Position numbers and translations under genes: made by a program. 32,000 bases of DNA from NCBI GenBank assembly GCA_013166775.1, contig JABLTJ010000005.1:69731-101730 (forward strand), written 5' to 3'. This stretch comes from Promethearchaeati archaeon (GTDB lineage Archaea > Asgardarchaeota > Heimdallarchaeia > Heimdallarchaeales > Heimdallarchaeaceae). Positions within the stretch are counted from its first letter, which is position 1. Each line of letters starts with the position of its first letter. Positions 19,459-19,638 of the stretch are shown one piece after another. The notes under the pieces are model-generated. The model saw nothing but the letters and a program-made list of their open reading frames with translations, made no database searches and was not told the origin of the DNA.

Positions 19459-19638
19459 CCTAGCAAGGTTTTCAGGTTCGGAATGAGTCTGAGTGTTACC
19501 CCTTCACTATGGCCGCGACGCATCGCAGCGAACGGCTGTTCCCAAGCCCTCGCGGAACTTAGTACAAAGCCACACGTTGAAGGACTTAACTTTCCCGACC
19601 ATCTGGAACGCATCCAGATGTTGTCTGACCTTACTAGG
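19459..19638 (-). rRNA. 5S rRNA-like gene with circularly permuted domain order (3' half upstream of 5' half), including a leader/trailer clamp helix
   Basis: A GC-rich island in AT-rich DNA. The minus-strand RNA, read 5'->3', has these elements in order. (1) CCUAGUAAGG, the clamp 5' strand. (2) An extra hairpin. (3) AAGUUAAG, the loop B 3' side. (4) UCCUUCA, helix II 3' strand. (5) GGCU/UUGUAC...UAAG-UUCC-GCGA-GGG-CUUG...GGAAC/AGCC, forming helix V, loop E, helix IV and a GNRA loop D. (6) GCUGCGA-UGCG-UCGCGGC, helix I closed by a tetraloop. (7) CAUAG, loop A. (8) UGAAGGG, helix II 5' strand. (9) GUAACAC. (10) UCAG-ACUCAUUCCGAAC-CUGA, helix III and loop C. (11) AAA. (12) CCUUGCUAGG, the clamp 3' strand. 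All helices are complementary as read. The motifs match archaeal 5S consensus strings as I recall them (CAUAG, ACAC, CUCAUUyCGAACC, AAGUUAAG, UUGUACU, GGGAA). Confidence 0.75.

Follow-up and report, generated by a model that had tools for sequence, protein, structure and literature searches.

The window (the whole stretch of DNA analyzed, 32 kb) comes from an AT-rich archaeon and carries gyrA/B, RPA, HypE/F, and a group-4 hydrogenase or complex-I-like module, together with a tRNA-Ser(GCU) gene that is transcribed divergently. No 16S or 23S rRNA, EndA, or RtcB genes are encoded in these 32 kb. On the minus strand, positions 19638 to 19459 read as a transcript of ∼180 nt, a 5S rRNA in permuted order. 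This RNA begins with CCUAGUAAGG, UCAG, ACAA, CAUCUGGA, UGCGU, UCCAGAUG, GU, CGGG, AAA, and GUUAAG; its remainder includes GCUGCGA, UGCG, UCGCGGC, and CAUAG and, further downstream, UCAG, ACUCAUUCCGAAC, CUGA, AAA, and CCUUGCUAGG. The genomic sequence is GGUCGGGAAAGUUAAG on the leader side and CCUGAAAACCUUGC on the trailer side. The 3′ half of the 5S rRNA comes first, starting at AAGUUAAG and running through helices V and IV to the 3′ strand of helix I. A 4-nt loop follows, and then the 5′ half, made up of the helix I 5′ strand, CCAUAG, helix II, helix III, loop C, and CCUGA. The break in the permuted molecule falls exactly at the AA bulge of helix III.

No 5S rRNA was called by Rfam at the gathering threshold (RF00001, 38 bits) in the window or in 18 related loci, so that the locus shows neither the colinear order nor the score of an ordinary 5S gene. 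Below the threshold, the window gave two half matches, of 21.5 and 15.0 bits, in reversed order. Since Rfam yields only these halves, the permutation was demonstrated by rotation, folding, and alignment. The rotated sequence is colinear with normal archaeal 5S rRNAs from six unrelated loci (52 to 60% identity), and the alignment has no gap at the junction. The features of a permuted gene are present: the 3′ half lies upstream, a linker connects the native ends, and a site resembling the bulge-helix-bulge motif (BHB) lies at the point where rejoining would be required.

Relatives were searched with a pattern in permuted order (AAGWUAAG ... CCAYAG ... CAYYYCGAAC) in one genome per prokaryotic species and in JGI metagenomes. 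Many matches, in bacterial, halophile, Nitrososphaeraceae, or Bathyarchaeota loci or in coding sequence, were false; they were called so on the basis of a normal 5S gene with a chance AAGWTAAG upstream. One locus (L041) has a 16-nt match to the junction predicted below, shows no other 5S features by Rfam, and was treated as a chance match. Once false positives were removed, 48 loci with 43 distinct sequences were retained. Permuted 5S genes are carried by ∼27 Heimdallarchaeota MAGs, AB_125 among them, and the closed genomes (CP084166 and CP084167) of “Ca. Heimdallarchaeum aukensis” and “Ca. H. endolithica” have two copies each. They are also found in two MAGs labeled only “archaeon,” in one MAG labeled Thorarchaeota, whose copy is of the Heimdall type in sequence, in a single Odinarchaeota MAG (L024), and in a single unclassified metagenome contig (L081), on which Pfam identified only generic, archaeal-type genes. 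The other loci are Heimdall-type copies on unassigned metagenome contigs. The 37 distinct Heimdall-type loci were used to build an alignment, called A1. A 5S gene in canonical order was found in none of 50 loci (362 kb), and Wu et al. (2022) stated of the complete Heimdallarchaeum genomes that their 5S genes “could not be predicted” (PMC8813620). Given this failure of prediction, and the lack of any canonical-order or Rfam 5S in our search, the permuted genes are most likely the only 5S genes of these genomes.

The comparison of these loci revealed the conservation expected of a 5S rRNA. The loop motifs CCAUAG, CAUUCCGAAC, AAGUUAAG, and GUACU...GGGAA are invariant in A1. The helices that form the three-way junction (I, II/III, and IV/V) are paired in 91 to 100% of the cells, double-sided changes occur in 15 of the 33 pairs counted, and all five helices covary. 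The native helix III, in which the 5′ strand UCAG (19489 to 19492) is the partner of CUGA (19472 to 19475) in the mature fold, is 100% paired, with one compensatory change from U-A to C-G (L092). The original prediction had read the RNA as a permuted 5S, and this was borne out by rotation, folding, alignment, and covariation alike. As judged from the sequences, the locus is a circularly permuted and independently transcribed 5S rRNA gene.

The linker that joins the native termini is very short. In the window, helix I is a hairpin of 7 bp (19512 to 19529; GCUGCGA-UGCG-UCGCGGC) with a UNCG-type tetraloop (19519 to 19522). A short loop closes helix I in every locus, usually on 7 bp and with the sequence UGCG, UUCG, or UACG, occasionally UAUG or UAAG. 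The closing pair shows compensatory changes (A-U, C-G, and U-A), and two loci (L063 and L091; GGAU-UUCG-AUCC) show triple compensation. The Odinarchaeota copy has 8 bp and UUCG, and L081 has 6 bp and a 6-nt loop. The capped stem and its loop together are about as long as a normal helix I. A loop of only 4 nt on a 7-bp helix I would argue against a later reopening of the linker.

The transcript appears to extend essentially from one strand of a terminal helix to the other. A box resembling BRE/TATA elements (CCAATAGTAACATTCAAAAAC, 19660 to 19680) is centered ∼26 nt upstream of the G preceding this helix, and its consensus in 25 aligned upstream regions is CCAATAGyAAAGATTAAAAAAC; its putative function is suggested by position and composition. 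Directly after the helix lies a T-rich tract (UUCUUUA, 19452 to 19458), likely an archaeal terminator, and a T run is found at this place in most loci. In the window the tract lies 3 nt from the stop codon of a convergent flavodoxin gene. The promoter-like box and the T run together imply the transcript limits given above. The terminal helix, or clamp, is formed by the first 10 nt of the RNA (CCUAGUAAGG, 19629 to 19638, leader) and the last 10 nt (CCUUGCUAGG, 19459 to 19468, trailer), which pair over 10 bp with one U·G. This clamp with its single G-U was described in the original prediction, whose sequence statements and coordinates are all correct. The unconstrained minimum free energy (MFE) fold of the window RNA, called for as a check, keeps both the clamp and a leader hairpin (z = −3.9).

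The evidence for the clamp comes mainly from its relatives. In A1 it shows double-sided changes at 9 of the 10 pairs, with 98.4% of the cells paired, so that the compensatory changes for which the original prediction had proposed to look are present among the 37 loci. The A1 covariation scores were reached by 0 of 500 shuffles and collapse in slid controls. In the other architectures the clamp is unrelated in sequence (e.g., UCUCAACGAUG, CCUAACAAAACU, CUAAUGGCA, GGUAGUAUCG, and AGAUCCUGAG), yet it is complementary over 9 to 13 bp. The nucleotide following the clamp (U or G, column 17) was also compared with the fourth trailer nucleotide (A, U, or G) and does not covary with it (19 U-A, 9 U·U, 4 G·U, 4 G·A, and 1 U·G). 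By the comparison of loci the clamp is a genuine conserved structure, and the comparative evidence for it is decisive. A fortuitous pairing, a decaying 5S pseudogene, or an assembly artifact might be suspected from the window alone, where Rfam calls no 5S and where the clamp is only moderately unlikely as a single sequence, at least 10 contiguous terminal pairs being obtained in 0.5% of 20,000 shuffles. Such an explanation is effectively refuted, and we give it almost no weight, by the presence of 48 independent loci in many assemblies and two closed genomes, by the covariation of all helices, by the conserved promoter and terminator, and by the fact that no other 5S is known in those genomes.

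The clamp is also compatible with another proposal, namely that no processing of the splicing type takes place and that a linear permuted 5S rRNA, like that of brown-algal mitochondria, functions with a nick at the helix III bulge. The clamp would then either keep both halves of helix III in place as a terminal stem or serve in ordinary leader-trailer processing, with other nucleases doing the trimming. Its covariation is equally expected for a structural or a generic processing stem, it is bracketed by promoter and terminator, and the capped helix I shows that the RNA keeps its permuted topology at least in part. Moreover, archaeal 5S rRNA is said not to circularize in the species studied (PMC12918454), and a 5S rRNA that is naturally permuted in its final form exists in organelles (PMC4267664). 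We consider this proposal unlikely on account of the elements that lie between the clamp and the body of the 5S rRNA.

Each strand of a canonical BHB motif, read 5′ to 3′, consists of a flanking helix, a 4-nt central strand, a 3-nt bulge, and a second flanking helix, and it is cut after the second nucleotide of the bulge, a position reconstructed here from the geometry of tRNA introns at 37/38. The whole motif is thus a 4-bp helix flanked by two 3-nt bulges (PMC7714728). In the permuted 5S RNA, the 4 nt directly 5′ of AAAGUUAAG are complementary to the 3′ strand of helix III. In the window these are CGGG (19594 to 19597), the leader strand of the proposed central helix, which pairs with the trailer strand CCUG (19473 to 19476); the latter overlaps the helix III strand CUGA (19472 to 19475). 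The leader strand is presumably not the relic of a tandem duplication, since a relic would be identical to the helix III 3′ strand and not complementary to it. All 4 pairs form, and the helix is exactly 4 bp long, in each of the 43 distinct sequences, including all of A1 (100% paired). The pairing is CGGG or CAGG with CCUG in Heimdallarchaeota, CGUG with CACG in the Odinarchaeota copy, and CGGG with CCCG in L081. Within Heimdallarchaeota the leader columns vary only between G and A opposite U and therefore show no double-sided covariation, and covariation across lineages rests on two single lineages, L024 and L081.

Both bulges have the expected length and position: they measure 3 nt, lie on opposite strands, and follow the respective central-helix strand on its 3′ side. 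The leader bulge is an AAA (19591 to 19593) that is invariant in every sequence, with a predicted cut between 19592 and 19591. The original prediction had found no second bulge; comparison with relatives located it in this AAA. The trailer bulge is AAA (19470 to 19472), with a predicted cut between 19471 and 19470; the clamp can be lengthened by the fourth nucleotide of this run (19469). The bulge reads AAA(A/U/G) in Heimdallarchaeota, GAA in the Odinarchaeota copy, and AUA in L081, and is formally 4 nt long where the fourth nucleotide cannot pair with the one following the clamp. That the trailer AAA is flanked by the clamp and a 4-bp helix had been recognized from the window alone. Its handedness is that of a BHB (bulge 3′ of the central strand), and a cut there would indeed leave ..CCUGAA exactly before the required (A)GUUAAG.

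The outer helix differs among architectures. In L024 and L081 the clamp directly abuts the central helix, and in copy A of Heimdallarchaeum (L018, L036, L084, and L098) a 5-bp helix, GUGGU:ACCAC (ACUAC in L036), does so, giving a contiguous h-B3-H4-B3 arrangement in all of them. In the window and most Heimdallarchaeota copies, an insert of 31 nt (UCAGACAA, a hairpin, and GU) separates the clamp 5′ strand from CGGG. What serves as the trailer “bulge” there is therefore, in formal terms, one strand of a three-way junction, and the motif counts as relaxed. A 3-bp GGU:ACC helix beside CGGG, which would be the window's counterpart of GUGGU:ACCAC, is not conserved in variants with AACAGG. The inner helix is not contiguous in any lineage: it is supplied by the lower part of helix III, where (U)AAC of the 5′ half is the partner of GUU(A) in the leader, and the other strand is interrupted by the looped-out loop C and 5′ strand of helix III, which makes the motif relaxed throughout. 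A contiguous inner helix between the leader GUUAAG and the trailer CCGAA(C) was rejected as a canonical h′, its best version having two or three weak and unconserved pairs. The early description of the motif as relaxed at best holds for the window, with its 31-nt insert; in copy A, L024, and L081 the geometry is canonical as to the directly abutting outer helix.

The 31-nt insert consists of (U/G)CAG, a spacer, a covarying hairpin, and 2 nt. The hairpin (19600 to 19620) has an 8-bp stem (CAUCUGGA/UCCAGAUG) and the loop UGCGU; in A1 its stem shows double-sided changes at 5 of 8 pairs and is paired in 97.3% of the cells. It is specific to Heimdallarchaeota and is missing in L024 and L081. RNAalifold also proposed a GGAA:UUCC pairing between the leader and loop C, all columns of which are invariant and are evidence neither way. 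The original prediction had placed the central helix at the clamp-adjacent UCAG (19625 to 19628), paired with CUGA (19472 to 19475). Cuts would then fall in the trailer AAA and in the ACA after UCAG, with the hairpin as inner helix, and a ∼33-nt insertion would be kept, as an expansion segment, at the helix III bulge of a ∼154-nt circle with the junction CCUGAA-AACAUCUGG. This register has the correct handedness and an uninterrupted series of outer helix, 3-nt bulge, and 4-bp helix; the hairpin lies ∼3 nt from UCAG, and the covarying stem and fairly conserved loop (GGAUGCGUUCC) fit a retained element. CAG is invariant in the window-type architecture (37 sequences), where RNAalifold selects the CAG:CUG pairing.

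The UCAG:CUGA pairing occurs in 94.6% of the A1 cells without covariation, and in 8 of the 37 sequences UCAG is changed to GCAG, which breaks the first pair (G·A) and leaves 3 bp. UCAG is missing from the leaders of Heimdallarchaeum copy A (the L018 type), where the canonical BHB further downstream would remove the hairpin, and the Odinarchaeota copy and L081 have no hairpin at all. Nor does this register account for C(R)GG-AAA, which is invariant beside GUUAAG and covaries with the helix III strand, and the product would not have the length of a canonical 5S rRNA. The CGGG register (19594 to 19597), kept in all lineages, is favored over UCAG because of the situation in copy A and because of this length; the UCAG register is improbable, and the two might also be used in sequence. 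The CGGG register does not account for the invariance of CAG or for the partial conservation of the hairpin loop. Competition for the CUGA strand, which had been proposed from the window alone, is supported for all three segments: the leader UCAG (19625 to 19628), UCGGG (19594 to 19598), and the native UCAG (19489 to 19492).

Taken together, these observations lead us to favor, with modest confidence, a permuted 5S gene whose transcript carries a BHB-like motif in the CGGG register and is rejoined by EndA and RtcB into a 121-nt 5S rRNA. In the primary transcript, leader and trailer would pair as the 10-bp clamp, and the CGGG upstream of AAAGUUAAG would capture CCUG, the 3′ strand of helix III. 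The resulting motif would comprise the outer helix, the trailer AAA bulge, the 4-bp helix, and the leader AAA bulge. EndA would presumably cleave both bulges, between 19592 and 19591 and between 19471 and 19470, leaving 2′,3′-cyclic phosphate and 5′-OH ends as at its canonical substrates, and RtcB could then ligate ..CCUGAA to AGUUAAG.... With the leader strand lost, the native helix III (UCAG:CUGA with its AA bulge) would form, giving a 121-nt 5S rRNA of normal sequence continuity. The 2-nt bulge left after ligation might guard the product from being cut again. Asgard EndA proteins, including those of Heimdallarchaeota AB_125 and Odinarchaeota LCB_4, are of the broad-specificity (αβ)2 type and have an L1 loop linked to cleavage of relaxed BHB motifs (PMC5829648). 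The unconstrained MFE folds of the L018 and L081 precursors already include the BHB-like motif, and forcing it costs 2.5 kcal/mol in the window and 2.2 kcal/mol in the Odinarchaeota copy. A switch between a processing fold and a mature fold, as originally suggested, is thus energetically plausible according to these models, the former being the MFE in two architectures and within 2.2 to 2.5 kcal/mol in two others.

The predicted product of the window extends from 19591 to 19471 and comprises the 3′ half (19591 to 19523), the tetraloop, and the 5′ half (19518 to 19471). The products predicted across loci measure 120 to 122 nt and, when folded as circles, have the canonical three-way structure of 5S rRNA as their MFE fold. 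The L081 product would have one extra nucleotide and a helix III bulge of 3 nt, not 2 nt. The predicted junction reads ...CGAACCUGAA-AGUUAAG... in Heimdallarchaeota, with the longer context ...CAUUCCGAACCUGAA-AGUUAAGUCC... in the window, and ...CGAACACGGA-AGUUAAG... in the Odinarchaeota copy. A linear 5S rRNA nicked at helix III would leave unexplained why 4 nt complementary to the helix III 3′ strand are conserved in every lineage and covary, why exact 3-nt bulges lie on the correct sides, why symmetric cuts restore the length of a canonical 5S rRNA, and why a canonical BHB is part of the MFE in L018 and L081. If EndA and RtcB do rejoin the transcript, the product would at its simplest be a covalently closed circle, since a 4-nt tetraloop already closes helix I. 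More tentatively, and with a good deal of doubt, we suggest that in Heimdallarchaeia, and in one Odinarchaeota lineage at least, mature 5S rRNA may be such a closed circle made by EndA and RtcB, with helix I permanently capped by a UNCG-type tetraloop and the junction at the AA bulge of helix III.

This processing, if it takes place, would have several implications. It would explain why 5S genes were undetectable in the complete Heimdallarchaeum genomes (PMC8813620), probably also in many Asgard MAGs, and a pattern or model in permuted order offers a simple means to annotate Asgard 5S genes. RNA rearrangement by endonuclease and ligase would be widened from tRNA and 16S/23S rRNA to 5S rRNA, which current reviews exclude. 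We found no prior description of a permuted or circular archaeal 5S rRNA in the literature, of which our coverage was incomplete. A closed 5S circle made in this way would be the first of its kind, and its gene would be the first permuted 5S gene that is cellular, i.e., not organellar. The proposed processing predicts the specific junction CGAACCUGAA-AGUUAAG, and the archaea most closely related to eukaryotes may have a circular 5S rRNA in their ribosomes. As one strand of the motif is taken from the mature RNA, it would also be a natural case of a processing fold that is obliged to switch to the mature fold.

Several known systems resemble this one in part. The archaeal 16S and 23S pre-rRNAs carry BHB stems at which EndA excises the rRNA, which RtcB then circularizes, and circular or permuted 23S rRNA persists in the ribosomes of some archaea (PMC12918454, PMC7758197); archaeal 5S rRNA is stated not to go through this circularization route (PMC12918454). 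These stems share with the permuted 5S RNA a long leader-trailer helix that carries a BHB. Their genes, however, are colinear, with the BHB in spacers outside the mature ends, whereas the 5S gene is permuted and ligation is needed for its sequence to become normal. Substrates with relaxed BHB motifs also have a 4-bp central helix, a 3-nt bulge on one or both strands, and a flanking helix that is imperfect or absent (PMC5829648, PMC6379350). Unlike them, the RNA of the window has a 31-nt hairpin insert that creates a three-way junction, and the 5S body supplies its inner helix in trans. The “permuted” 5S rRNA of brown-algal mitochondria has its ends at the loop A junction and is permuted in its final form (Valach et al. 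2014, PMC4267664). There, too, a hairpin replaces or closes helix I, the termini are displaced, and standard covariance models miss the gene. Nevertheless, the order of the β and γ domains is unchanged in the algal RNA, which involves no BHB or ligation, whereas the order of the Heimdallarchaeota 5S is truly rotated, with a break in helix III and a predicted site of rejoining.

The circularly permuted tRNA genes of Cyanidioschyzon merolae and Thermofilum pendens are processed through a circular intermediate (PMC4267664, PMC6379350). In them, as in the 5S gene, the 3′ half lies upstream, leader and trailer form a BHB or relaxed BHB at the point of rejoining, and a linker joins the native termini; cleavage by the splicing endonuclease followed by ligation gives a circle from the tRNA genes and would do so from the 5S gene. 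The 5S system differs in its substrate, in the position of the break at the AA bulge of helix III, and in the bare 4-nt tetraloop on a shortened helix I of 7 bp. No equivalent of RNase P or tRNase Z is known for the 5S linker, and the product may therefore stay circular. As the mature 5S rRNA includes one of the two central-helix strands, refolding would be required, unlike in permuted tRNAs. Among these systems, the permuted tRNA genes of C. merolae and Thermofilum are the closest analogs of the permuted 5S gene described here.

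The permuted 5S gene (window positions 19638-19459, minus strand), in which the 3' half precedes the 5' half, is convergent with a flavodoxin gene (18925-19449, plus strand) that ends in a TAA stop codon at 19447-19449. The conserved ACGTT(T/A)AC that follows the T-run of the 5S gene (19444-19458, minus strand) corresponds to this stop codon and the last flavodoxin codons, and only 3-10 nt separate the putative 5S terminator from the end of the flavodoxin gene. This layout is kept in most of the loci whose leader is of the window's type. Upstream of the 5S promoter, at a distance of about 120 nt, lies a divergent tRNA-Ser(GCU) gene (19762-19844, plus strand). 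Since a tRNA adjoins the permuted 5S in most of the related loci scanned (13/18), the pairing is syntenic. Farther along, HypE and HypF adjoin an Mbh/complex-I-like membrane module (together 19904-31793) encoding NuoH/A/J/L/M-like, NuoB, 4Fe-4S, and NiFe large-subunit-like proteins, which identifies the region next to the 5S gene as a group-4 [NiFe] hydrogenase locus. The 5S gene and promoter region (19446-19752) also contains four overlapping mechanical ORFs of 55-81 aa, distributed over both strands; these are spurious almost for certain, but annotations could list them as genes by mistake.

The loop of the leader hairpin (GGA-UGCG-UUCC, 19600-19620, minus strand) and the cap joining the two strands of helix I (CGA-UGCG-UCG, 19512-19529, minus strand) have GAUGCGU in common. 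This motif could serve both elements as a signal for a protein or for processing, or it could be just the same stable tetraloop. The clamp formed by the paired leader and trailer ends has a variant, UCUCAACGAUGU / ACACCGCUGAGA, found in four related loci (L012, L015, L066, and L075), with 1-2 A.C mismatches at fixed positions, one of which is restored to A-U in L015. In another locus, L041, the minus strand carries GAACCUGAAAGUUAAG (plus-strand coordinates ~7721-7736), an exact 16-nt match to the predicted ligation junction, located ~2.4 kb away from the permuted 5S; the base after the match also agrees with the predicted product of L041 itself. The search for other 5S features and an Rfam signal at this site found none, so the match is probably due to chance.

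The permuted 5S of L081 (Ga0102944_1002888, 2180-2335, minus strand) is in an unclassified archaeal contig of higher GC. Its clamp directly abuts the proposed central helix, and a 6-nt loop (UAUUAU) closes helix I. In its predicted product, the helix III bulge is 3 nt long (AUA) instead of 2 nt. L024 (JAWBON010000007.1, 2447-2603, minus strand) comes from a MAG labelled Odinarchaeota; it has the same break point as the other permuted 5S genes, a helix I capped by UUCG, and no leader hairpin. The permuted gene may have arisen early within Asgard, been transferred, or evolved convergently in this lineage; alternatively, the bin may carry the wrong label.

Both closed Heimdallarchaeum genomes have two permuted 5S copies (L018 and L042 in CP084166; L036 and L026 in CP084167). 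Within each genome, the 5S bodies of copies A and B are near-identical, whereas their leader/trailer architectures are wholly different: copy B has the clamp CUAAUGGCA, GCAG, and a hairpin, while copy A has a canonical bulge-helix-bulge with GUGGU:ACCAC.
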